Sequence record: MN709127.1
Reading direction: 5' to 3' (one strand)
DNA: 64,000 nucleotides
From: Escherichia phage Ec_Makalu_002
Made by a program: the position numbers and the translations under genes. Of the stretch, positions 4,480 through 55,189 are shown piece by piece (the first letter of the stretch is position 1; the number at the start of each line of letters is the position of its first letter). Below the pieces are notes generated by a model that saw only the letters and a list, made by a program, of their open reading frames with translations, ran no database searches and was not told where the DNA came from.

Positions 4480-6380
4480 CAAAGCAAAAGATTACACAAA
4501 TTCCTGATATTTTTAATGCTGCTACATTCGATGAAATTAAAAGCGCATTAACCGACTGGATGAGAAACCAGGAAGAATTTAAAGATTTTGATTTTAATGG
4601 TGCTGGTATTAACGTATTGATGGACTTGCTCGCATATAACACTCTGTATATTCAGCAATTCGCCAACGCCGCGCTATATGAATCTTTTATCAGAACGGCA
4701 ATTAAGCGTAGTTCAGTTGTTCAAGCCGCGCAAGATTTAGGATATTTGCCAGCGAGTAAAACTAGTGCATCGACTACAATTATGTTGCATGTTTCCCATC
4801 CACGAAATCCGGCAAGTATTCGAATCCCACGAGGGACTAAATTTATTGCAAGTGTGGATCGCCAGACTTCTTACCCATTTGTTACTACAGAAGACGTTGT
4901 GAGCGTTTTAGGTTCAAATGGTTTATATACGCCTATGCTTAAAGTCGCACAAGGTCGTATTGTTCGTACAGAAATGTTATTTGATCCGAAGAAACAAATT
5001 CTGATCCGTGACCCTGATATTGACCGCGCTCAGGTTAAATTGTGGGTGGACGGTGCTGAATGGAAAGACTGGACACGAGAAAGTATTGTTAATGCAACTG
5101 GCGCAAGCAATATTTTCTATATGCGTGAAACCGTAGACGGACATACAGAAATTTTCTTTGGTGAAGGTGAATCAACCTTATCTGCGGCTGGCGGGGCGCT
5201 GGAAGCAAATTATATTGGTGGACTTAAGCCGTCAACTGGCGCTAATATTGTTATCGAATATATCAGCACTAAGGGCGCGGAAGCAAACGGTTCAGTTAAT
5301 TTCACATACGCGGATACCCTTGCATCTATCTCTATTGTTAAAATTATTGAGAATCCGACAAATGATCGTGATTATGTCGGTGCAGATGGTGGTGGTGATC
5401 CTGAATCAATCGAACGTATCCGTGAACTTGCTCCGGTAATGCGTGAATCTCAGCGTCGTTGTGTAACTGCTTCCGACTACGAGGCTTTTGTTTCTAGCCG
5501 TTTTGGTAGTATTGTTCAGGCTGTACAATGTTTCACCGACCGAGAAAAACCGGGTTATGCTTTTGTTGCTGTTAAGCCTAAATCTGGCTTGCGTTTGACA
5601 ACTGTTCAAAAAGAAGATATGCGGGATTATCTGGCAAAATATAACCTTGCCCCTATCACACCGAGCATCATTGACCCTAACTATCTGTATATTAAACAGA
5701 ATATTAAAGTTTCCTATTCAATCAATGACTTGTCAGAATCAGAGCAGTGGTTGCGCGGTGCGGTTATTGATCAGATTGATGCATATTATACCGACGAAGT
5801 GGAAATTTTTAACCAGACCTTTAGTAAGTCTAAAATGCTTGCGCGTATTGACAAAGCTGATGTATCTGTGATAGGTTCTAGTGCAGAAATCGAGATGGTG
5901 CGAGAGATCGACAACTTCTATAAAGCACCGATGGCTGGAATCAAGTTTTTAAACCAGTATAAGAGCGGAATCAAGTCTAGTTCATTCAACTTCGAAAAGG
6001 ACGACAAGCAATATCCGATCCATTATGTAAGTACAGAAATGAACAAAGAATCCGGTTTAGCTAAATTGCTGGTTGGACCTTTCCCTGTTGGTTCTGCAAT
6101 CGCTTTACCGCACTATTCCGGCACTGATTTTGATAAAGAGGTTATCGACGGTGCGGACCTATACTTTGAGGTTGGAGAGGTTCAGCATTATGACGACCTT
6201 ATTTCATGGGATCTGGGTAAACTGAATATCAATAGCGATCGCTTTACTGGTTCATATATTGAGTTGACAGCTAAACCGATTGCTGATAACATCTTTACTA
6301 AAGACGGTTCTTTGATCGTGTTTGAAAACGATCTCCGTCCTCAGTACACAACTATTAGTCTGGAGGCAATTGCTCAATGA
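4476..6380 (+). CDS. 6: Baseplate wedge protein gp6
   Basis: 634 aa; synteny and size (T4 gp6 ~660 aa). Confidence 0.8.
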
Positions 6381-10818: not shown

Positions 10819-11135
10819 ATATTAAACGGCATTATACAATGGGTAAACCAAAACATCCAATGCATAAAGTGTTTTGGGGCTTACATCTTCAAGAAAAATG
10901 GCATGATAACTATTGGTTTTGTGACCATGATAAGAAGTGGCATTCTCAAGATGAAGTTAATGCGATGATGGAACAGGGTATAAAGTTTAATTACTCTAAT
11001 TATGACCATAGCATTACTTGTATTCGAAAAATGAAACGGTTTATTCGAAAGAATCCACAATTTAAAAACTTTGTGTTCTTTATGTCTCATGTTTATTTGG
11101 GGCATAGCGTTACCGTAACAGCAAAGGTTAAATAA
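10806..11135 (+). CDS. Hypothetical Trp/His-rich protein (cassette gene 2)
   Basis: 109 aa; overlaps upstream ORF; stop overlaps next start (TAATG). Confidence 0.5.
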   Translation: MARVNIKRHYTMGKPKHPMHKVFWGLHLQEKWHDNYWFCDHDKKWHSQDEVNAMMEQGIKFNYSNYDHSITCIRKMKRFIRKNPQFKNFVFFMSHVYLGHSVTVTAKVK

Positions 11136-11974
11136 TGGCACGACTTTCCAAACAAGAACAAAAATTACACGATCGGGCAATGGAGCTAATCAATTCAGAC
11201 CGCCCATTGACATATGAAGAAAAGGAGTTTTGCTATAATAACTATCATGGAGATGGTCTAGGTGGTTCCGGTGCATTCTTTACCCCAGAGGGGCTTGCGT
11301 GGGATTTTACCATTGACGCACACTGCACCGGAAAAGTATTAGATTTGTGTGCTGGGATCGGTCGCTTATCTTTCTGTATGTTACATCGATGCAGACCAGA
11401 AAAGATCGTATGCGTCGAACTCAATCCAGAATTTTCGCGGATTGGCAAGCGACTATTACCGGAGGCAGAATGGATCACCAGCGATATATTCGAATTTGAG
11501 TCAAACGAAAAATTCGATGTGGTGATCAGCAATCCACCTTTCGGTAAAATCAATACAACCGACACAAAGGATGTATTTGAATACACAGGCGGCGAATTTG
11601 AATTTAAGGTTATGACGTTAGGCCAGAAGTTTTCCGATGTAGGTTATTTTATTGTTCCTTCTGGTTCCGCTGGGTTTGCGTATTCTGGTAGACCTTATTA
11701 TGATGGATCAGTGAAGTCTAATAAATATCTAAAGTGGAGCAAACAAACTGGTCTTGTGACTTATGCCGGATGTGGGATCGATACATCAATTTATCGCGAT
11801 GAATGGCACTGCACCAACGTTTTAACAGAAGTGGTTGAGGTTCGGTATTACGAGAAAGAAGCCGTAGAAGCGCCTAAATCGCGTCCTAACGAACAAATAG
11901 AAGAAAGTAAGGAGATTACCTTACCAGAACAGGAAAGCGAGTCTGGTACGCTCTCAGACTTGTTTGACATTTAA
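11135..11974 (+). CDS. SAM-dependent amino-methyltransferase, gamma-class-like (probable DNA N6-adenine MTase)
   Basis: Motifs FFTPEG (motif X-like), VLDLCAGIGRL (motif I), VVISNPPFG (motif IV NPPF) in that order. Confidence 0.6.
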   Translation: MARLSKQEQKLHDRAMELINSDRPLTYEEKEFCYNNYHGDGLGGSGAFFTPEGLAWDFTIDAHCTGKVLDLCAGIGRLSFCMLHRCRPEKIVCVELNPEFSRIGKRLLPEAEWITSDIFEFESNEKFDVVISNPPFGKINTTDTKDVFEYTGGEFEFKVMTLGQKFSDVGYFIVPSGSAGFAYSGRPYYDGSVKSNKYLKWSKQTGLVTYAGCGIDTSIYRDEWHCTNVLTEVVEVRYYEKEAVEAPKSRPNEQIEESKEITLPEQESESGTLSDLFDI

Positions 11975-45315: not shown

Positions 45316-45833
45316 TGACAGAAACTAAACCTATGTTAAAATTTGTTGTTCCTGTAAAAACTTTAGAGATAAACGGGAAACATATCAAGATCCCAAAAAT
45401 GGGTATTAAGCAACATCGATTATTAAAAGATGTTCGTAGCTGCGATGAAACATTAAAGATTCTTCTTGATTCAATCTGCCCTGGGTTAAACGCTGCTGAG
45501 TCTGAATTGGTTATGCTTAATCTTTGTGCGTTTAATGGTAAATGTCTGGAAGAAAAAGACGGTCTTAAACTATCTGATGTGTATATTTGTACAGAAACTG
45601 AATTTGATTTAAATGGCAAAACATTTAAATTTAAAAATCCGATGTATACTTCTGACCCCATTATCGATGACGCTGATTTCTTGAGTCATCATTATCACGA
45701 TCCTAGTGTAGACTTCCATGACTTCCCAGCTTTTATTATGGATTGGGCTACAGGATTAAGAAAAACTATTGCACTGGATACGCCGGAAGGTACTATCTAT
45801 GGTGGAATTAACATATTGGATCGCCTATCATGA
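45315..45833 (+). CDS. 28: Baseplate hub protein gp28
   Basis: 172 aa; synteny and size. Confidence 0.75.
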   Translation: MTETKPMLKFVVPVKTLEINGKHIKIPKMGIKQHRLLKDVRSCDETLKILLDSICPGLNAAESELVMLNLCAFNGKCLEEKDGLKLSDVYICTETEFDLNGKTFKFKNPMYTSDPIIDDADFLSHHYHDPSVDFHDFPAFIMDWATGLRKTIALDTPEGTIYGGINILDRLS

Positions 45834-47563
45834 ATGACGCATTAACATCATTTCGCGGGATGCGCAAGGAAGCGGAAGAAAATCCGATTGATAAACTTAA
45901 CAAATTAGATAAACTTGATTCTATTGATAATTTGCAAGCCGCTACCGAATTGGTGGCGGAGACAGTAGAACAAAAATCTAATGAAGTTGTTGGTGCGGTA
46001 GAGGATAACACCGCAGCCAATGAATTAACGGCAGAGAATACACAATCTACCGCTGGCAATACCCAAAAAACTTATGAAGAATTGCAAAAACTCAATAATT
46101 TCTCTTCTCAGATGAATGAGAAATTACGTGGTTTTGGCGTTATGATGGAACGTAGATTTGGTGTTGTCAGTAAAATGGCGAGCGGTATTGGTGCGATTGA
46201 AGAAGCACTGAAAAAACCGGAACAACCGCAAACAATGCCATCACCTCAGCCAGTTTTGCCTACTGTACCGGAACAGCCTAATAATGACAACTATCAAGGT
46301 CTTCCAAAGAAAAAACCAGATGTTGATGACCGAAAGAAAAAGAACGCCACAGATAAGCGTAATGCGGATTCTATGGAGAATCTTATTAAAGTTGTTCGTG
46401 GTGGATTTAAAGAAACCATAGGAATCTCTAATAAGGTCTTAGGGATGTTATTTAAGATCACCTTAACCGCAATGGCAGAAGCCGCAAAATGGGGTGCTAT
46501 TTTGATGGGTATTGTTTTCGTCATTGATACCCTGATGGTTCATTTCAGATATTGGAGCGATTTATTCGAAACAAAATTCGATGATTTTATGGATAAGGCC
46601 GGAGAATGGGCTGGACCAATTAGTGATATTCTAACAACTATTCGTCAAGTTCGAGATTATTGGTCTAAAGGCGAATATGGAGAATTAATTAAATCTCTTG
46701 TTATGGGTATTGGTGATGCATTCTATAAAACCTTTATCCAACTTGATCGAATTATCACTACTGGTATTGCTAAAATTCTTCGCATGATTCCTGGTATGGG
46801 TGATTATGCCGATAAGTTAGAATATGGTGCTTTAAAATCTGCTGTCGCTCAAGGATATACGCCAAATGAAAGAGAACTCGAATTAATGGATAAGGTCGAG
46901 TCTGAACACGAAAAAGACAAGTATGGAGAGCGCACAGGGTGGACCGGAAAAGCCCGTGATATTGGCGAAGCTATCGGGGATTCTATTAAGGATAAAGTTA
47001 ACGAAGGTCTTGTTAGTCTGGGTTGGCGAGATCAAAAGGATGTTGACGCAGAGAAGCGACAAGAAGAATTAAAGCGCGGAGAATATGAGTCTGTTTCTGC
47101 TGAACAACGATCTGCTAGTCGTAAACTTAGAATTAAAAGTGAGGGCGCGATCAACAATATTAATGAAGTTATGGAGAATTTGAGCGGTGACTATGACAAA
47201 GAAAGAATGGGAGAGTTGAAAAAGGATATTGATGTTTACCGTGAGAAAGTTCAAGATCCTACATTAGTTGAAAGTGATCGTTCTCAGTTAGAGCGTCTTA
47301 TTGAAAAATTTGATGAGATGTATGCTGATAAAACTAAGGGTGTTGTGCAAACACAGCCAGTTCCTGCAACTGAAACGGAAACAGCAAAACAAGCGGAACG
47401 TACTGAACAAATGCAGAAACAAGCTGCAATCCAGCAACAAACGACAAATCAGACCTCAAACGTAAATAATACACAAATTGTAACAAACAATAGAACTATT
47501 AAACAGGGTGCACCAACAACTAGAATTGATGCCCCAGGTACAATTAATATGGGGAACTTTTAA
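45830..47563 (+). CDS. 29: Tail tape measure / baseplate hub protein gp29
   Basis: 577 aa; synteny and size (T4 gp29 590 aa). Confidence 0.8.
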   Translation: MNDALTSFRGMRKEAEENPIDKLNKLDKLDSIDNLQAATELVAETVEQKSNEVVGAVEDNTAANELTAENTQSTAGNTQKTYEELQKLNNFSSQMNEKLRGFGVMMERRFGVVSKMASGIGAIEEALKKPEQPQTMPSPQPVLPTVPEQPNNDNYQGLPKKKPDVDDRKKKNATDKRNADSMENLIKVVRGGFKETIGISNKVLGMLFKITLTAMAEAAKWGAILMGIVFVIDTLMVHFRYWSDLFETKFDDFMDKAGEWAGPISDILTTIRQVRDYWSKGEYGELIKSLVMGIGDAFYKTFIQLDRIITTGIAKILRMIPGMGDYADKLEYGALKSAVAQGYTPNERELELMDKVESEHEKDKYGERTGWTGKARDIGEAIGDSIKDKVNEGLVSLGWRDQKDVDAEKRQEELKRGEYESVSAEQRSASRKLRIKSEGAINNINEVMENLSGDYDKERMGELKKDIDVYREKVQDPTLVESDRSQLERLIEKFDEMYADKTKGVVQTQPVPATETETAKQAERTEQMQKQAAIQQQTTNQTSNVNNTQIVTNNRTIKQGAPTTRIDAPGTINMGNF

Positions 47564-48621: not shown

Positions 48622-49553
48622 TGTTTGATTTAAATGACTTTAACGAACAAGCCGCTAACCTTGACTTTCAGCGATCTAACTTATTCAGCGTGGCATTTGC
48701 CACCACTCCAAGTAATAAGACACAAGCGATCCTAGAAAGTATGGGCGGTGCGGTATATGATATTATACCAAATGCATTAAATGACTATTTCGGGATTACT
48801 CGTGGTGATTATACTGACGCATTAACAAATCTTGCTGTACAGGGTGTTAGGCGTGCTGTTGATTCATCCGGTGTCAAAAAGTATCTTTTAGGTGCAATGT
48901 CATCCCGCGTAGTTCAATCTCTTCTGGGGCAATTTGATGTTGGTACATATGCGCTTGACTGGTTCAATATGGCATATAAGACAAGCGGTCTTCTGGTGTA
49001 TGCTGTTAAGGTTCCAGAAAACAGATTGAATTATGAAATAGACCGCAACCACAATGCGCCAAACATTCGAATTACGGGACGTGATTTTGATCCGCTTGTA
49101 TTGAGCTTTAGAATGGACTCTAGCGCATCAAACTATAGAGCAATGCAGGATTGGGTTAACTCAGTAGAAGACCCCGTTACAGGGCTTCGTGCGCTTCCTG
49201 TTGACGTTGAAGCAGATATTCAGGTTAACTTACATAACCGAATGGGAGTTCCTCACACGATCATGATGTTTAATGGTTGTGTTCCTGTTGGTGTGAGTGC
49301 ACCGGAATTAACCTATGAAAATAACAACGAAATTACAACATTCGATGTTACTTTTGCGTATAGGACTATGCAAACTGGTGCTGTAGGAGAGCAAGCCGCG
49401 CGAGAATGGATTGAGGATAAGGCAATAAACGCAATAACAAACACTTTCGGCAACAATTTACTTGATAGTGGGTTATCTGCTGCTGGTAATGCTTTATCGC
49501 GTCTAAATGGCGTCGGTGGGCGTGTGGTGAATACTGTCACTAACTGGTTCTGA
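48621..49553 (+). CDS. 54: Baseplate tail-tube initiator gp54
   Basis: 310 aa; synteny and size. Confidence 0.8.
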   Translation: MFDLNDFNEQAANLDFQRSNLFSVAFATTPSNKTQAILESMGGAVYDIIPNALNDYFGITRGDYTDALTNLAVQGVRRAVDSSGVKKYLLGAMSSRVVQSLLGQFDVGTYALDWFNMAYKTSGLLVYAVKVPENRLNYEIDRNHNAPNIRITGRDFDPLVLSFRMDSSASNYRAMQDWVNSVEDPVTGLRALPVDVEADIQVNLHNRMGVPHTIMMFNGCVPVGVSAPELTYENNNEITTFDVTFAYRTMQTGAVGEQAAREWIEDKAINAITNTFGNNLLDSGLSAAGNALSRLNGVGGRVVNTVTNWF

Positions 49554-49560
49554 TAAGCGA

Positions 49561-49588
49561 AAGGCGGGGGACAATCCCCCGCCTTTTT
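49561..49588. terminator. Bidirectional terminator between gene 54 and the convergent minus-strand operon
   Basis: GGCGGGGG-ACAAT-CCCCCGCC followed by TTTTT; A-rich on the other side. Confidence 0.65.
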
Positions 49589-50072
49589 ATTTTGCTAAAT
49601 CATTGCAATATTTTAGTGCCTTAGTTTGAAACTCTGCGCTGTTAAGTTCTTCATAACGGTCATAATCACCGTTTAATGCTGCCTTTCTTGCTTCTTGTTC
49701 TATCTGCATGTCAGACATGATAATACAACGATCCCGCGCTTTCATCTTCTCAAGTTGTATAGACTCTTCTTGTTGCTTGCGCAATTCTTCTTGATGCTTC
49801 TTTTCTTCTCGTGCTTTCTCTTCCCGCGCTTCTTTGATTGCATCTTTGAACATCTGCGTTTGTGGTGCTAAACCAACTTTAACGCGATCCACGTCTCGAC
49901 GTTCCATTTTAGAAATAAAACATGATTCGATCTGGTCATCGCTTGCATATGCTGCTTTACATTCACGAAGCAAGAAAACCGGATCTGATTTAGCATTCAT
50001 CATAGCTTCCATGTTAGTACAACCAGTAAGCATGAATGCAGCCGCAAGACCAATCAGTTTAATCATTTTCAT
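49587..50072 (-). CDS. Predicted lipoprotein with coiled-coil region
   Basis: N-terminus MKMIKLIGLAAAFMLTGC (signal peptide with lipobox LTGC); start overlaps stop of upstream gene by 4 nt. Confidence 0.55.
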   Translation of the reverse strand: MKMIKLIGLAAAFMLTGCTNMEAMMNAKSDPVFLLRECKAAYASDDQIESCFISKMERRDVDRVKVGLAPQTQMFKDAIKEAREEKAREEKKHQEELRKQQEESIQLEKMKARDRCIIMSDMQIEQEARKAALNGDYDRYEELNSAEFQTKALKYCNDLAK

Positions 50073-50893
50073 TTAGTCACCTCACCGAAAATTGTAAATT
50101 GTCTACGATTCTCATCGCCGAAAGATTCTACTACGTCGTTTACCTTGATGCAAGTCCCGCGCGGTAAAATTACTTCACATTCGCAAGGATTCCATGCAAT
50201 AGACCCAACAACAAAACCTTTATGATCTTTTACGTCAATTACCCATGATACATTACAAGAATGTTGCATCTTTCCGGTCATTGATTCATATCGATTCTCA
50301 CAATAAAGGCTAGTGCTGTTTGAAAGCCATCCTCCAAAGATGATCGGTGTCATGCTGGTCGATACAAAGTTTTTAAAGGTAAATTCCTTATCTTCAATAA
50401 TACGCTCTATTGTCTGAATGTCAAGATGTTGACCGCGATAAAGAGTACCGTTTAACTTTTCGGTTTTATCCATGACACAATCCATCAAATCGACAATCTC
50501 TGATATCTCATCGGTCATGTCTTCTTCCCCTAAGAGAGCACCATTTACCCATTCGTATTGTTCAGACACATAATCGCAGATTGCATTATATTCTGCTGGG
50601 GTTATGTTGTTATGTTTGTAATGTTTGAATACATTATCTCCAAAATCTTCGGAATGTACTTCATACATCACATTAATGATTTTCTTGACAAATCCATAAT
50701 CTTGCGTTTCTTGCTCAAGGAAACGGATAACTTTCACGTAATCATCAAAGTTAATATGATCGCTGATCATTTCAGTGATCATGTAACCATTAATCCCCTC
50801 AATGCCATATGTTTCGATGTAATTATCCATACGTTCCATCATTGATTCGCGTGATTCTTCGGAAAGGCGAAAATCCTGTAATTTCTTGAACAT
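50069..50893 (-). CDS. ADP-ribosyltransferase, short Alt/Mod-like paralogue
   Basis: R-S-E motif triad: LYRGQ, FVSTS, ECEVILPRG; ATG with GGAGG site. Confidence 0.65.
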   Translation of the reverse strand: MFKKLQDFRLSEESRESMMERMDNYIETYGIEGINGYMITEMISDHINFDDYVKVIRFLEQETQDYGFVKKIINVMYEVHSEDFGDNVFKHYKHNNITPAEYNAICDYVSEQYEWVNGALLGEEDMTDEISEIVDLMDCVMDKTEKLNGTLYRGQHLDIQTIERIIEDKEFTFKNFVSTSMTPIIFGGWLSNSTSLYCENRYESMTGKMQHSCNVSWVIDVKDHKGFVVGSIAWNPCECEVILPRGTCIKVNDVVESFGDENRRQFTIFGEVTK

Positions 50894-50972
50894 TTTAAAC
50901 CTCCCATATAACAGAAAACGGGGCTAGTATAAAACTAGTCCCCGTTTGAGTCAACCATTATTTCTTAAAAAA

Positions 50973-53024
50973 TTACATTTTAAATTTATCCGGCATAGCG
51001 TCTACAGACACAAGATCAGCGATAAGCTGACGTAGAGTTGCCTTATCTGCTTTCTTACGTTCGGTTTTAGCTTCGGTAATGAAGCTGGAGAAAGACAGGT
51101 CAGAAGCAGGTTTAACAACACCTTCACGGATGAATGCATCACCGTCCGCGATCATCTCACCAGATTCTTGTAATGCTGCCAGTTCATTTTTGTTCATAAT
51201 ATGTGCCTCGATGTAATAAGTTTCTTGTGAATCCGTCGATGCCGTAGCACGAGTTACCGTATCAAAGGATAACACAACACCGCGAGGAAGTAAAATCTCG
51301 CATTCTTTGTAAGCAAATGCTTTGTTACCTACTGGCAATACAGGGATGTTTTCCGCGCCAGCAATGGAGAAAGCAACATTAGCGCCACCTTCACCGCGAG
51401 ATCCCGCCATAGAATCAACACCAGCAACGGCACTAGCCACGTTTGCATTCCAGCCACCAAAAATATTAGGTGCAAGGGAAGTGCTCACATAGTTTTTAAA
51501 GTAAAACGCTTTTTGCTTACGTGCAGTTTCCCACATTTGCGACCGGAAGTCCATACCACGATACAAGATAGTACCTGGATCAAGTTTAACACCATAGTTA
51601 GCAAATGCGTTATCCAGTGCATCACACATCTTGACCAATTCTTCTGGGTCTGCGATGCCTTCAAACTCTTCCAGCTTACGGTCGGTTAGGAAGTTGTTCA
51701 TATTGATGTATGCTGCATCCGCATATTCGCTCAACACAAAACCTTCCGCGCCAGGCAGATCAAGATCAATATCTGCCATCATTTCACCCATGTTGCTAGC
51801 AATTGCTTCAAACATACCGGAAGCAACATTACGCAGGGCATCGGTTTTAATCTGCGTGATGTGACTACGCAGCATTTCAGCTTTTACATCTGCTGGCATA
51901 GACTGGTCGACGCGATCCATTGCCAGGGCGGTGATCTTGTTTTCGAATACTTCCTCGCTCATGATTTCTTTTAAGCGTTTGATTGATGCTGCGATGACTT
52001 CCGCAGACAACGGATCATATTGATCCTGAACTTTTACCAGTTCGCTTACTGCATATTTTGCATCGGCTTCGCTTTCAAAAATAGTACGCATGAAACCATA
52101 GCGAGTGATAATATCACTTGTCCAGTCATTCAGAGAACGGGCGGTTGAACGTTCTAAGGCTTGACGGTCAATCAGAGTATTAAACTGTTTCTTAGGTTCT
52201 GCTTCGGTGATATCTTCTTCCGGTTTAAGATTAATTTTTTCTGGATGATTCACATAGTCGCTGTTATAGGTCGCTTGAGTTTTCAGCATTTCTTCTTTAG
52301 TCAAACGAGATTTAGCCGCTACGCGTTGTTCTGCTTCCGCGTTTCGTTCTTCTTCCGACACAAGACTAGCCGCATACGCCTCATCTTTAGTCAGAGATTC
52401 ACCAGTAGCCTTAGATACCCAGCGATCACCTAAATCACTTTCTACTTTAGTGAACAGGGATTCATCGAGTTTAATCCCTTTAATCTTATCAATCGCCATC
52501 CCGCGACGTTTGACAACAACTAAAGCGATCTTTTTGCTGGTCATTACTTCCTGCTGGAATACTTCAAACTTCGGTGTACGACGCACCAAACGCTCTATAA
52601 CGCGCTTAACCAGTTCGGTCTTACCTTTCATGCGGGATACGTTAAAACGGAACATAACAGCGTCTAATTGCGCTTTACGGGCTGTTTCCATGACCACATC
52701 AAAAGCACTTGACATAACTGCAATCGGGTTATCTCCTAGACCATTTTTAAGCTGTACAATACGACCGCTTTTGTTCATTTCGCACAGTACAACATGTGCG
52801 GTCTTGTCACCCATACGAATGATTTTAGGTGTTTTGTTGGTGAAGTTACAAAGACGGACAATCACATCTTTATCGCGTGTCTGTACTGCAAAAAGCTGTT
52901 TAGGATTCTGCTTAGGCTTTAAGCACTGTACCGGAGCAATACTGCCAAAGTTTTCTTCCTCTTCCGTCAACAGCCATTTCTCGAAAGATTCAATCATTAG
53001 ATCGTCGATTTCTAAGTTAAACAT
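50973..53024 (-). CDS. alt: ADP-ribosyltransferase Alt
   Basis: 683 aa (T4 Alt 682 aa); C-terminal R-S-E motifs LYRGMD, YVSTS, ECEILLPRG; position next to gene 54. Confidence 0.8.
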   Translation of the reverse strand: MFNLEIDDLMIESFEKWLLTEEEENFGSIAPVQCLKPKQNPKQLFAVQTRDKDVIVRLCNFTNKTPKIIRMGDKTAHVVLCEMNKSGRIVQLKNGLGDNPIAVMSSAFDVVMETARKAQLDAVMFRFNVSRMKGKTELVKRVIERLVRRTPKFEVFQQEVMTSKKIALVVVKRRGMAIDKIKGIKLDESLFTKVESDLGDRWVSKATGESLTKDEAYAASLVSEEERNAEAEQRVAAKSRLTKEEMLKTQATYNSDYVNHPEKINLKPEEDITEAEPKKQFNTLIDRQALERSTARSLNDWTSDIITRYGFMRTIFESEADAKYAVSELVKVQDQYDPLSAEVIAASIKRLKEIMSEEVFENKITALAMDRVDQSMPADVKAEMLRSHITQIKTDALRNVASGMFEAIASNMGEMMADIDLDLPGAEGFVLSEYADAAYINMNNFLTDRKLEEFEGIADPEELVKMCDALDNAFANYGVKLDPGTILYRGMDFRSQMWETARKQKAFYFKNYVSTSLAPNIFGGWNANVASAVAGVDSMAGSRGEGGANVAFSIAGAENIPVLPVGNKAFAYKECEILLPRGVVLSFDTVTRATASTDSQETYYIEAHIMNKNELAALQESGEMIADGDAFIREGVVKPASDLSFSSFITEAKTERKKADKATLRQLIADLVSVDAMPDKFKM

Positions 53025-53065
53025 TTTATATCCTCTAGTTGATAACCTATAAACCTATATTTATG

Positions 53066-53088
53066 AAAAAGGGGCTTAACACCCCCAT
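53066..53088 (-). terminator. Minus-strand terminator upstream of alt
   Basis: GGGGGTGTTAAGCCCC followed by T-run on minus strand. Confidence 0.5.
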
Positions 53089-53091
53089 TTA

Positions 53092-53304
53092 TTATAATGC
53101 ACCATCGAGCAATTGCTCTAAGGTGTATCCTGAATAGTCTTTTTCAATCAGGATATATTTTCCTACTCGTTTAATACAACCGCGCATTTCAACGTATTCT
53201 GCGTAGTTGATGGTGCGAGTTGTTCCATCTTCTAGTAAAGCAGTACCGATTTCGTTAATGCGGTCATAAGTTACGTCGGTAATGATGATTTCGATGTTAG
53301 CCAT
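53092..53304 (-). CDS. Hypothetical early protein
   Basis: 70 aa; ATG preceded by conserved AGGAG leader. Confidence 0.5.
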   Translation of the reverse strand: MANIEIIITDVTYDRINEIGTALLEDGTTRTINYAEYVEMRGCIKRVGKYILIEKDYSGYTLEQLLDGAL

Positions 53305-53340
53305 TTGATACTCCTTAGTAGTTCGTTTCGGTATGGGTGT

Positions 53341-53369
53341 ATTATGATATACACCCTCTGTTATGTCAA
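53341..53369 (-). promoter_or_regulatory. Early sigma70-type promoter (TTGACA-17-CATAAT)
   Basis: Member of the repeated promoter/leader module family. Confidence 0.5.
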
Positions 53370-53587: not shown

Positions 53588-53616
53588 AGTATAGGGGATC
53601 GCCGATCCCCTGTCAA
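53588..53616 (-). promoter_or_regulatory. Early promoter with palindromic spacer (TTGACA-GGGGATCGGCGATCCCC-TATACT)
   Basis: Hexamers at 17-bp spacing; the spacer is a GATC-containing hairpin. Confidence 0.6.
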
Positions 53617-53623
53617 CAACTTT

Positions 53624-54142
53624 TTAGTTATTTTTTAATTGCTCATCTTGCAATAATGCAATCACATGCTGGCGATGTTCTTCCGATTGAGGAACACCGA
53701 AAAAGTTTGTTTTGTAGAAATACTCTAATCGGTCTTCTCGTGTGCTCTCTTCCATCATGATCGCGGGTAGTCCAAGATTTCGGAAACGTCGCTTTTCTGC
53801 TGGCGTAAAATCACTGTAATACAACATAGAATCATCATTACCAGCAATGCTAAACTCATCCTTCATAAAGGAGAATATTGCGTTTAAACGCTGTTTACCG
53901 TCCACGATTTCGATCTCATAGCGAGAGCCATCATCAATCTTAGCCATTGCGATAGCACCAACCGGAAAATCATTAATCAGGTTTTCGATAAACATACGTT
54001 TGTTTTCGGTGTCCCATACCAAAGGACGCTGATAATCTGGGTTCATGTTGATATAGCCATCTTCTAACCACGCCTCATAAACAGAGATGACAAAGTTTTT
54101 AGTATTGGTATAGTAACGGCGTTTAGGCGTTAAACGGTTCAT
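53624..54142 (-). CDS. DUF262 (ParB/Srx-like, GmrSD N-terminal-type) domain protein
   Basis: YQRPLVWD ... IVDGKQRLNAI resembles the DUF262 DGQQR motif; ORF track starts at TTG 54178, ATG 54142 has AGGAGA site. Confidence 0.55.
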   Translation of the reverse strand: MNRLTPKRRYYTNTKNFVISVYEAWLEDGYINMNPDYQRPLVWDTENKRMFIENLINDFPVGAIAMAKIDDGSRYEIEIVDGKQRLNAIFSFMKDEFSIAGNDDSMLYYSDFTPAEKRRFRNLGLPAIMMEESTREDRLEYFYKTNFFGVPQSEEHRQHVIALLQDEQLKNN

Positions 54143-54143
54143 G

Positions 54144-54476
54144 TTATAGTCTCCTGAATGGATCATCACGTAAATCAATATCTTTTAAGAACTCATCCCA
54201 TGAATGGCGGATAATGTTCTTAATTCTCCAGATAAGCGCAGGGATTGAACGCTCTCCCATCTGGAAGTAAGGATCATATGATCCATATGCCCAATATGCT
54301 ACTACAATTCCACAATCGGCGCAATAATATTCTATTTCACTTGCTGGCGACCAAAGTCCATCAATATGATCACGGATCTTGCTTTCGATGTTATGGCTAT
54401 GGCAATCAGGGCAACGGATGCAATGACCTTGTTTATCGTAATTTGACGTTAGCGAATACTTAAACAATCTCATCAT
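54144..54476 (-). CDS. Zinc-ribbon protein
   Basis: CIRCPDCHSH ... YCADCG (paired CxxC); start overlaps stop of upstream gene (ATGA). Confidence 0.5.
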   Translation of the reverse strand: MMRLFKYSLTSNYDKQGHCIRCPDCHSHNIESKIRDHIDGLWSPASEIEYYCADCGIVVAYWAYGSYDPYFQMGERSIPALIWRIKNIIRHSWDEFLKDIDLRDDPFRRL

Positions 54477-55189
54477 AGATCCTTATTGGCTTCAAATACT
54501 GCCTTTGCGAATCCTCGCGGGGTAAGTGACCTGATAGTCTTTGTTCTGGTTCCTTTCCCGCCTAGCTTAGAATGCTGTTTACTGTACCCTTTATTAATCT
54601 GCAACGGTTTCTTTTCTGGCATTATAAAGCCTTGTCCGGTCCATAAGCAAGTCTTTTTCGGGTACATATCACGGGCGGCAATATACTCAGGAAACGTAGG
54701 ATGCTTATCATCTTCCGGCAAATAACCGCCATATTCCCACGGATGGAACATGTAATCAGGCTTACGCCACATGCTAGAGATAACGCTTACAGGATTCTCT
54801 ATCATGTAGGGAACTCCTAGCCATTCACCCAAATAAGCGGTTATTTTAGCTGCCCTTACATCATGAACTTGAATTAATGGTCCTTGTTCTCGTTTCTTTC
54901 GTTCAAAGTGCGCAGCGCCACTAACAGCTAAATTGGTGCATGGTGGGAATGCAAAGATAATATCCGGTTTCCCCCATTCAAGGTCCATTGCTCTTTCCAG
55001 CCAATTTAAATCAATCCATGTGTTTACATATGTAATGTTTGGATGTTCAAATCGGGTATTATATTTTTTGTATGTACCGTGGTCGCCATCGTCAGCATTA
55101 AAGCAGATCACCTTATGACCTGCTTTAGCCCATTCTAACCCCATTATCCCCGATCCGTCAAAGTTGCAGAATATTAATTTTTGTTTCAT
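54473..55189 (-). CDS. Compact C5-cytosine methyltransferase-like protein
   Basis: FDGSGIMG (motif I-like), FPPCTNLAVSG (PC motif IV), MIENPV (ENV motif VI), RSLTPRGFAKAV (RxLTPRE-like); 238 aa. Confidence 0.55.
   Translation of the reverse strand: MKQKLIFCNFDGSGIMGLEWAKAGHKVICFNADDGDHGTYKKYNTRFEHPNITYVNTWIDLNWLERAMDLEWGKPDIIFAFPPCTNLAVSGAAHFERKKREQGPLIQVHDVRAAKITAYLGEWLGVPYMIENPVSVISSMWRKPDYMFHPWEYGGYLPEDDKHPTFPEYIAARDMYPKKTCLWTGQGFIMPEKKPLQINKGYSKQHSKLGGKGTRTKTIRSLTPRGFAKAVFEANKDL

Follow-up and report, generated by a model that had tools for sequence, protein, structure and literature searches.

The alt locus of a Krischvirus: a predicted early unit of an Alt-derived ADP-ribosyltransferase and a lipoprotein behind a putatively late alt gene

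In the genome of Escherichia phage Ec_Makalu_002 (MN709127.1), two ADP-ribosyltransferase genes are followed by a gene for a putative lipoprotein, which raises the question whether the three form one functional unit and what a lipoprotein does in such company. We analysed the locus within a stretch of 64,000 nucleotides (nt) of this record, called the window in the following, where the three open reading frames (ORFs) occupy positions 49587-53024 of the minus strand. A previous interpretation made without database searches (the sequence-only reading) had described them as one operon and had proposed that the lipoprotein acts in superinfection exclusion or as an immunity factor. The three ORFs and the motifs quoted for them are all present. 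The arrangement that we favour is nevertheless a different one, i.e., two transcription units, of which the first comprises alt and the second encodes an early enzyme similar in role to T4 ModA/ModB together with an early lipoprotein of the cell envelope. Taken as a whole, we give this explanation a slightly better than even chance of being correct, while its individual parts differ in strength.

The window stems from a Krischvirus, i.e., an RB49-like phage of the T4 type. Its alt region (3.8 kb) is 99.7% identical to that of Escherichia phage Ec_Makalu_003, and 58 records show at least 95% identity to this region; every one is a Krischvirus isolated on E. coli or Shigella. Read in the direction of transcription, the minus-strand genes are alt (50973-53024; 683 amino acids, aa), the gene of the second transferase, which we name ART2 (50069-50893; 274 aa), and the lipoprotein gene (49587-50072; 161 aa), whose codons 1-18 (50019-50072) encode signal peptide and lipobox. 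Since the trio is found in 58/58 Krischvirus records and the ratio of non-synonymous to synonymous substitution rates (dN/dS) of the locus genes versus close relatives is 0.02-0.14, we consider them real genes rather than chance ORFs. The TGA of ART2 and the ATG of the lipoprotein gene share the tetranucleotide ATGA at 50069-50072, an overlap already reported in the sequence-only reading, and the two genes are by this arrangement predicted to be translationally coupled. The gene identities as well as the origin of ART2 from Alt are held with high confidence.

The evidence on the operon question lies mainly in the 79-nt spacer between alt and ART2 (50894-50972, minus strand). It shows the architecture of a promoter-early stem-loop (PeSL) cassette, i.e., an AT-rich leader, a -35 box TTGACT (50954-50949) at a distance of 17 nt from a -10 box TATACT (50931-50926), a terminator-like hairpin (50916-50947) that overlaps the -10 box and is followed by UUUUCUGUU, and the Shine-Dalgarno sequence GGGAGG (50900-50905) before the ATG of ART2, all on the minus strand. 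The promoter matches 10/12 sigma-70-type consensus positions, and the hairpin reaches -18.9 kcal/mol as RNA (z -5.35 compared to shuffles). The annotators of GEC-3S called this spot a promoter, those of the Makalu phages a terminator. Cassettes of this class were defined in RB49 and phi1, and in assays other copies, namely PeSL193/192 and 206/205, acted both as strong promoters of the sigma-70 type and as effective terminators (Arbiol et al. 2010, PMC2839356). All parts described therein are present in the alt/ART2 spacer, including the GGGG...CCCC stem-loop overlapping the -10 box, and by comparison both activities are predicted for it.

The cassette is conserved beyond the genus. Among metagenomic relatives, TTGACA-17-TATACT with a GGGG...CCCC hairpin recurs in L020, L022 and L024 and as a variant in L018, and across relatives three base pairs of the hairpin show compensatory changes. 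That is, the cassette, together with the late motif described below, is kept in relatives whose Alt is only 41-43% identical. The hairpin would terminate transcripts coming from alt, and the sigma-70-type promoter would drive an early bicistronic ART2-lipoprotein mRNA. By our reasoning, such a transcript would not terminate itself, because it would start inside the 3' arm of the hairpin and thus lack the 5' arm. Further PeSL-like units (a promoter close to consensus, TTGACA-17-(C/T)ATA(A/C)T, plus hairpin) are found in the window at 53335-53369 and 53588-53616 on the minus strand, before the small ORFs orf70 and orf59, such that the stretch upstream of alt appears as a string of single-gene early cassettes.

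Just before alt, a terminator-like hairpin GGGGGTGTTAAGCCCCT followed by TTTTTC (53070-53086, minus strand) closes the upstream early unit (orf70), and for GEC-3S a terminator has been annotated at the corresponding place. After it, a late-promoter-like motif CATAAATA is located at 53058-53065 (minus strand), i.e., 33 nt before the ATG of alt. The T4-type late promoter consensus is TATAAATA. Its first base varies in RB49-like phages. Variability of late promoters has been described (PMC1524935). At the motif's position, we find CATAAATA in the relative L013 and CTAAATA in the distant L018, with conserved sequence downstream, while a promoter scan of the region upstream of alt detected no sigma-70-type site at this place. 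We infer that the motif is active as a late promoter; late transcription of alt fits, since it is required for a head-packaged protein.

The second unit ends in a bidirectional GC-rich terminator hairpin (49559-49587, both strands; 13-bp stem with 8 GC pairs) that the lipoprotein gene shares with the convergent gp54. It is annotated on both strands in Makalu_003 and GEC-3S, distant relatives have analogous hairpins 3' of the lipoprotein gene, and past it follow the convergent late genes gp54, gp48 and gp29. Because a conserved terminator and early promoter cassette separates alt from ART2, the locus is probably not one operon, and with its own terminator and late motif alt does not fit into the three-gene operon of the sequence-only reading. 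We regard two units, a late alt and an early ART2-lipoprotein bicistron, as likely, the timing being deduced from sequence signals.

With regard to the first unit, the 683-aa protein is, judged by sequence, a full-length orthologue of T4 Alt. BLASTP aligns both colinearly across residues 31-681 (27% identity, E 3e-61), including the N-terminal region of about 400 residues, and the Alt profile phrog_802 is matched with E 1e-179. The protein also passes the Pfam family PF03496 (ADPrib_exo_Tox; E 5.6e-9, 36 bits, gathering cut-off 23.4 bits). The motifs LYRGMD, YVSTS and ECEILLPRG are present in its translation, with the catalytic triad at R489, S514-T-S and E574-x-E576, and the sequence is 99-100% identical across all 58 Krischvirus records. 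T4 Alt (PHROG 802; PF26846 plus PF03496) shares the R-S-ExE triad, and its gene occupies the corresponding genome position, adjoining convergent gp54. T4 Alt is packaged in the head, N-terminally processed by the prohead protease and injected (PMC9958956, PMC10468400). By homology, the Krischvirus product would be made late, packaged in the head and injected, and would ADP-ribosylate host proteins on arginine; with an identity of only 27%, packaging, processing and targets are extrapolated from T4.

ART2 carries the motifs LYRGQ, FVSTS and ECEVILPRG in its translation, and the claim of the sequence-only reading that it is an ADP-ribosyltransferase with its own R-S-E triad is well supported. 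It passes PF03496 above the gathering score (E 9.9e-16, 58.1 bits), matches phrog_15144 with E 1e-195, and its residues R153, S178-T179-S180, E238 and E240 (E238-C-E240) are invariant in six homologues, down to 29% identity. Of the Alt profile phrog_802 it covers positions 331-602 only, i.e., the N-terminal ~330 and the C-terminal ~70 residues of Alt are missing, and ART2 does not belong to the full-length Alt family (PHROG 802). The catalytic part aligns with residues 413-593 of T4 Alt (31% identity, E 2e-23) and with 487-593 of the window's own Alt (37% identity). A profile comparison against Alt, ModA and ModB, as suggested along with the sequence-only reading, gives a clear separation: the profile of the six ART2 homologues aligns with T4 Alt 405-613 at a probability of 99.5% compared to 2.6% for ModA and 1.0% for ModB (hhalign). 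BLASTP likewise detects no sequence relationship to ModA or ModB (E 0.43 and 1.1), such that ART2 is no member of the ModA/ModB family by sequence homology. The closest solved structures are, weakly, the arginine-specific toxins Tre1, SpvB and Vis. ART2 has no signal peptide, is 97.4-99.6% identical in all 58 Krischvirus records and shows a dN/dS of 0.04-0.09; an apparent class of 60-80% identity turned out to be an artefact of pieces joined with alt, as all 58 records reach at least 97.4%. By its sequence, ART2 is thus an R-S-ExE ADP-ribosyltransferase related to Alt, with predicted activity, and a paralogue that consists of the Alt catalytic domain only.

This relationship had been recognised before. 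In the RB49 record, RB49p183 carries the remark 'similar to C-terminal part of T4 Alt protein', and RB49ORF183c, 44RRORF188c and T4 alt.-1/alt.-2 are listed as paralogous alt duplications by Nolan et al. 2006 (PMC1524935). The years 2003-2006 thus already saw ART2 recognised as a duplicate of the part of alt that encodes the C-terminus, and existing annotations name the products of both genes ADP-ribosyltransferases. Duplications of alt in tandem are frequent among T4-type phages: JS98 has altA/altB, 44RR two full alt copies (ORF187c/188c), and T4 itself a decayed duplication alt.-1/alt.-2 plus alt.-3 between alt and gene 54. Like these paralogues, ART2 (RB49 ORF183c) is located directly downstream of alt. 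In contrast to the decayed T4 copies, it is intact and conserved with an invariant triad, and in contrast to the full-length, abutting copies of JS98, it comprises the catalytic domain only and has its own early-type promoter cassette. According to the T4 record (5066-5451 of the piece examined), alt.-1/alt.-2 go back to an old duplication that comprised the first part of alt and is interrupted by a stop codon; the half of Alt duplicated there is opposite to the half kept in the Krischvirus ART2. No lipoprotein gene is found between alt and gp54 in T4, JS98 or 44RR. The contrast to T4 drawn in the sequence-only reading was overstated, since alt.-1, alt.-2 and alt.-3 sit at this place in T4 and RB49 has a ModB-like gene at the T4 position.

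T4 ModA and ModB are early, small (about 200 aa) standalone R-S-ExE enzymes, and ART2, likewise small and standalone, appears to be expressed early, too. Yet it is without detectable homology to them and located elsewhere in the genome. RB49 has a single Mod-type gene, RB49p014 (ModB E 1e-7, ModA E 0.002), at the T4 position next to srd. Krischvirus has three transferases, like T4, but one of them is Alt-derived. Since RB49 has only one gene of the Mod type, ART2 may substitute for the second Mod enzyme. Given that it lacks the N-terminal ~330 residues of Alt and follows an early promoter, ART2 is most likely made in the cell soon after infection, where it would be a cytoplasmic, arginine-specific ADP-ribosyltransferase working like T4 ModA/ModB though not homologous to them. 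We consider such an early, intracellular, Mod-like enzyme fairly likely, rather than a packaged one.

What, then, is the protein encoded with ART2? Its N-terminus MKMIKLIGLAAAFMLTGC is composed of a basic n-region, an uncharged hydrophobic stretch and the lipobox L-T-G-C with Cys18; that is, MKMIKLIGLAAAFML-TGC contains two lysines and an uncharged hydrophobic core before Cys18. We assessed it with a rule of the PROSITE PS51257 type ([LVI][ASTVI][GAS]C, Cys at position 15-35, basic n-region, uncharged h-region), applied by hand and as a regular expression. The 161-aa protein shows all of these signal features, which are conserved in 45 family members and 7 distant ones. The lipoprotein call of the sequence-only reading agrees with this, as do existing annotations, which read 'putative lipoprotein' for phage W115 and, in UniProt, 'Lipoprotein' for KFS-EC. 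Export by Sec and lipidation at Cys18 are predicted, which we deem quite likely to be correct. In E. coli, Asp at position +2 matters for the membrane destination of lipoproteins (Lol sorting rule). The +2 residue is Thr or Ala here and no Asp occurs, so the outer membrane is the predicted destination. A lipobox scan of a composite whole genome yielded only the 161-aa protein and pseT.2 as credible lipoproteins. The annotated start of the RB49 ORF of the latter (o-spanin, 150 aa; 11106-11558 of the RB49 piece) is probably too early; from an internal start, the product would begin with a typical lipoprotein signal, MFKKAHKNFQTAIIHVFAVPIVFALSSC.

The protein corresponds to phrog_16112, whose function is given as unknown in PHROG. 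A word-seeded search of 5.8 billion proteins revealed a family of 46 clusters (96-172 aa; longest contigs from ~1 kb to ~171 kb), and an exhaustive search of 1.84 billion representatives with a hidden Markov model added seven more distant members (155-174 aa); a 1252-aa eukaryotic phosphatase (P0054) also matched in the latter search and was discarded as spurious. Beside the lipobox, four more cysteines (Cys38, Cys51, Cys116 and Cys156) are invariant in 45 sequences and the seven distant members, and the family shares the motifs [KR][KR]D-x3-R-x2-[VIL]-G and G-[DN]-Y. The invariant cysteines fit a location in the oxidising periplasm. The AlphaFold2 model (predicted local distance difference test, pLDDT, 89) is all-helical, with helices at 31-41, 45-65, 72-133, 137-143 and 146-159. 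In this model, two small cysteine-containing ends are joined by the 62-residue helix 72-133, the E/K/R-rich centre of which differs in length among alleles, i.e., the mature protein is probably a helical dumbbell with two disulfides. Beyond its own family, no fold relatives were found in the PDB and BFVD, and there is no match to Pfam, NCBIfam, PADLOC or PDB sequence profiles. Similarities to known phage and host proteins were rejected as being confined to the signal peptide: this holds for Cor (phrog_1119, E 0.0084, residues 1-45), T4 Sp (hhalign probability 8%) and E. coli Lpp. The lipoprotein thus represents an uncharacterised family specific to the Krischvirus lineage, and it has an unusual allele pattern.

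Within Krischvirus, the lipoprotein gene is the one strongly polymorphic gene of the locus, while Alt and ART2 show at least 97% identity. Allele A (at least 93% identity) is present in 50/58 records, allele B in Whisky and JK32, and allele C in 011D4, E26, PHB13, G37-3, AV108 and PTE-Eco09. Alleles B and C are 28-35% identical to A and 50% to each other; allele A' (~83% identity) was observed in metagenomes only. In 011D4, we see a clean replacement of the part coding for the mature protein: blastn breakpoints are at 50035 (codon 12) and 49603 (16 nt before the stop), the enclosed part of the lipoprotein gene (49604-50034, minus strand) is unalignable, and both flanks are 97% identical. At the protein level, this compares to 28-35% identity for the lipoprotein versus 98-100% for ART2, Alt, gp54, gp48 and gp29. 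Whisky, JK32 and the A' contig likewise have their breakpoint at the signal peptide, and there the divergence runs on into gp54, gp48 and gp29. One breakpoint of the exchange thus lies within signal-peptide codons, not in a PeSL. Synonymous divergence (dS) among alleles is 1.6-3.2, i.e., saturated, compared to 0.10-0.19 for alt and ART2. This difference indicates that the alleles are old and exchanged by recombination. The lipoprotein's dN/dS of 0.14-0.44 (neighbours 0.02-0.16) never exceeds 1, and with dS saturated we rejected recent positive selection on the alleles.

The pairing with ART2 extends beyond the genus. In 5/5 distant metagenomic contexts, the lipoprotein gene directly follows an ART2 of 264-282 aa, at spacings of -4, -8, +1, +1 and +11 nt. 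The next downstream gene is convergent in every distant locus, namely gp54 according to Pfam in L018, L021 and L022, and a truncated, unannotated ORF in L020 and L024. Identities of these loci to the window are 33-63% for ART2, 25-45% for the lipoprotein and 70-81% for gp54. What is new compared to existing annotation is this conserved pairing, the allele pattern of the lipoprotein and its fold; our searches of the literature yielded no work on the function, proteomics or transcription of ART2 or the lipoprotein gene of Krischvirus.

For the lipoprotein, our preferred guess is an early envelope-modifying role such as superinfection exclusion, which we put forward as a tentative one. It is based on the observations that the protein is apparently early and exported, universally retained and highly polymorphic, and that tblastn detected no Sp/Imm homologue in a composite genome. 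The lipoprotein would alter the envelope of the infected cell early, e.g., for superinfection exclusion or for protecting cell or progeny, as an analogue and not a homologue of T4 Sp/Imm or T5 Llp. T5 Llp and Cor of phi80/N15 (outer-membrane lipoproteins) as well as T4 Sp (periplasmic) and Imm exclude superinfecting phages at the envelope. The Krischvirus protein is comparable to them in that it is a small, putatively exported and apparently early product of a lytic phage. Llp and Cor are also lipidated, as is predicted here, and Sp is likewise helical and contains cysteines. On the other side, there is no homology to Llp, Cor or Sp, the gene is not located beside a receptor-binding gene, and Llp and Cor are only about half as large. 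In its most elaborate form, the reading describes a new family of early, outer-membrane-anchored periplasmic proteins for exclusion or envelope protection in RB49-like phages, where Sp and Imm are not detectable. The alleles A, A', B and C, reshuffled by recombination, would be specificity groups, and the protein would form a two-compartment takeover module with ART2 from one early mRNA, with ADP-ribosylation in the cytoplasm and remodelling of the envelope from the periplasm; this version is speculative.

Several observations weigh against our overall account. Concerning transcription, the promoter, the terminator and the late motif are all deduced from sequence, and in the relative L021 the spacer is reduced to 26 nt, in which TTGACA is present while a -10 box or hairpin is not clearly recognisable. 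ART2 may be packaged after all, since its N-terminus has an L-S-E motif of the type cut by the T4 prohead protease. For the lipoprotein, the lipobox reads LNGC in allele C and JK32, with an atypical Asn at -2. The exclusion role proposed in the sequence-only reading is kept here as a hypothetical candidate; similarity of the lipoprotein to Cor, Llp, Sp or Lpp does not go beyond the signal peptide. Furthermore, the lack of Sp and Imm homologues in a tblastn search of the composite Krischvirus genome is weak evidence for such short, fast-evolving proteins. Without any dN/dS above 1, the diversity may reflect weak constraint and recombination rather than an arms race. Finally, none of the three phage proteins compared (gp38, gp29 and gp5) co-varies with the alleles. 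The adhesin gp38 occurs in its RB49 type and in another type with each of the alleles A, B and C; in RB49, it is encoded ~65 kb from the lipoprotein gene, such that neither the linkage nor the co-variation of the Cor/Llp type is seen. For gp29 there is no consistent association, as it is divergent in four non-A phages only and four other non-A phages share the common gp29. Whatever the allele, the tail lysozyme gp5 hardly varies among the 58 phages (identity of at least 98.8%). Consequently, a blocker of the Llp type that fits the receptor-binding protein of the same phage is disfavoured because the alleles do not track gp38, and an Sp-like inhibitor co-evolving with gp5 because gp5 is near-invariant.

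The independence of the alleles from gp38, gp29 and gp5 also suggests that the variable partner may not be a phage part at all. The lipoprotein could instead neutralise a polymorphic host factor of the outer membrane or periplasm or an envelope-based defence, with alleles matching E. coli hosts; a protein that is apparently early, exported and retained in every genome would suit this task. However, no pattern is visible in the recorded hosts of phages with allele B or C, no dN/dS exceeds 1, and similarity to PADLOC, Pfam or NCBIfam entries is absent, which leaves this explanation doubtful.

For ART2, the competing explanation is that it is packaged into the head and injected like Alt. It is derived from Alt, the full-length tandem Alt copies of JS98 and 44RR are presumably packaged, and LxE-type motifs are located near its N-terminus. 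But ART2 lacks the ~330 N-terminal residues common to all full-length Alt proteins and is encoded behind the conserved early-type promoter and a terminator that would insulate it from alt. We thus judge packaging to be unlikely and stay with the early intracellular enzyme.

The structural model of the lipoprotein invites another comparison, namely to Lpp. An outer-membrane anchor with a long helix that reaches the peptidoglycan or attaches to it could act as a periplasmic brace or spacer that affects envelope stiffness, periplasm width or the timing of lysis. The 62-residue helix with its charged, E/K/R-rich centre of allele-dependent length would be appropriate, and most alleles end in a Lys as Lpp does. 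Allele B and L018, however, end in Asn, the match to the Lpp profile covers nothing but the signal peptide, and the model is monomeric with globular, cysteine-held ends instead of a plain coiled coil, which together render a brace improbable.

We find even less room for one operon of two transferases in which the lipoprotein serves as immunity protein or partner of the second. The shared strand, the overlap of the ART2 stop with the lipoprotein start and the preservation of the pair across distant relatives all suggest it. Against it stand the terminator and promoter cassette between alt and ART2, the different compartments predicted for ART2 (no signal peptide) and the exported lipoprotein with its invariant cysteines, and the allele data: lipoproteins of 28-35% identity occur beside ART2 of 98-99%, the opposite of toxin-immunity co-variation. 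As co-variation with ART2 is lacking and the compartments differ, a partner or immunity role is unlikely on sequence grounds, and the immunity factor of the sequence-only reading is not supported; the scenario as a whole we rate as very unlikely. A function in lysis, as o-spanin or unimolecular spanin, which could be suspected for a phage-encoded, predicted outer-membrane lipoprotein with cysteines, can practically be discounted, because RB49 has its spanins pseT.3/pseT.2 (Kongari 2018, PMC6139136) at the canonical site (128.6-129.3 kb), the genes next to the lipoprotein gene are ART2 and gp54 with no i-spanin adjacent, a C-terminal transmembrane segment is absent, the upstream promoter is of the sigma-70 early type, and instead of being short and proline-rich, the mature domain is helical and long.

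A few observations concern the surroundings of the locus. Just upstream of the alt cluster, the window encodes a 172-aa GmrSD_N/DUF262 (PF03235) protein (53624-54142) and a C5-cytosine DNA methyltransferase (54473-55189), both on the minus strand; a lone GmrSD-type N-terminal domain is curious in a phage with unmodified cytosine. At 1512-2330 of the distant 168-kb relative L018, an ORF with a Gp38_N domain and a Peptidase_M15 ORF are located a few genes upstream of alt, which is not so in the window. On the other side of the locus, gp29 (tape-measure/hub; 45830-47563, plus strand) is mosaic within Krischvirus, with 53-67% identity in JK32, PTE-Eco09, AV108 and Whisky, 72% in a metagenomic contig and at least 94% in the other 54 records; gp48 and gp54 diverge together with it. 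The window itself is a mosaic of its two closest relatives Makalu_001 and Makalu_003 (45830-47563 versus 49400-53200): its gp29 is 100% identical to that of Makalu_001 and 96.5% to that of Makalu_003, while its alt region shows 99.4% and 99.7% identity, respectively.

The two transferases as such add little to what is known, since alt duplications beside alt have been reported since 2003-2006. ART2 is, however, a clear-cut case from nature in which the catalytic domain of an injected enzyme has been redeployed behind an early-type promoter, which makes Krischvirus a useful comparison for the division of labour among Alt, ModA and ModB in T4. Likewise, the locus shows in little space, and in conserved form, how a PeSL apparently insulates a late from an early unit. 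According to the composite-genome scan, Krischvirus has no predicted lipoprotein apart from this one and its spanin; the protein is kept in all members and in distant relatives, yet it is deeply divergent among phages that show 97-99% identity around its gene. Deeply divergent alleles in otherwise near-identical phages often mark genes of phage-phage or phage-host conflict, and Krischviruses are widely isolated as candidates for phage therapy. A possible gene for exclusion or host compatibility in such therapy candidates would thus be worth a simple test.

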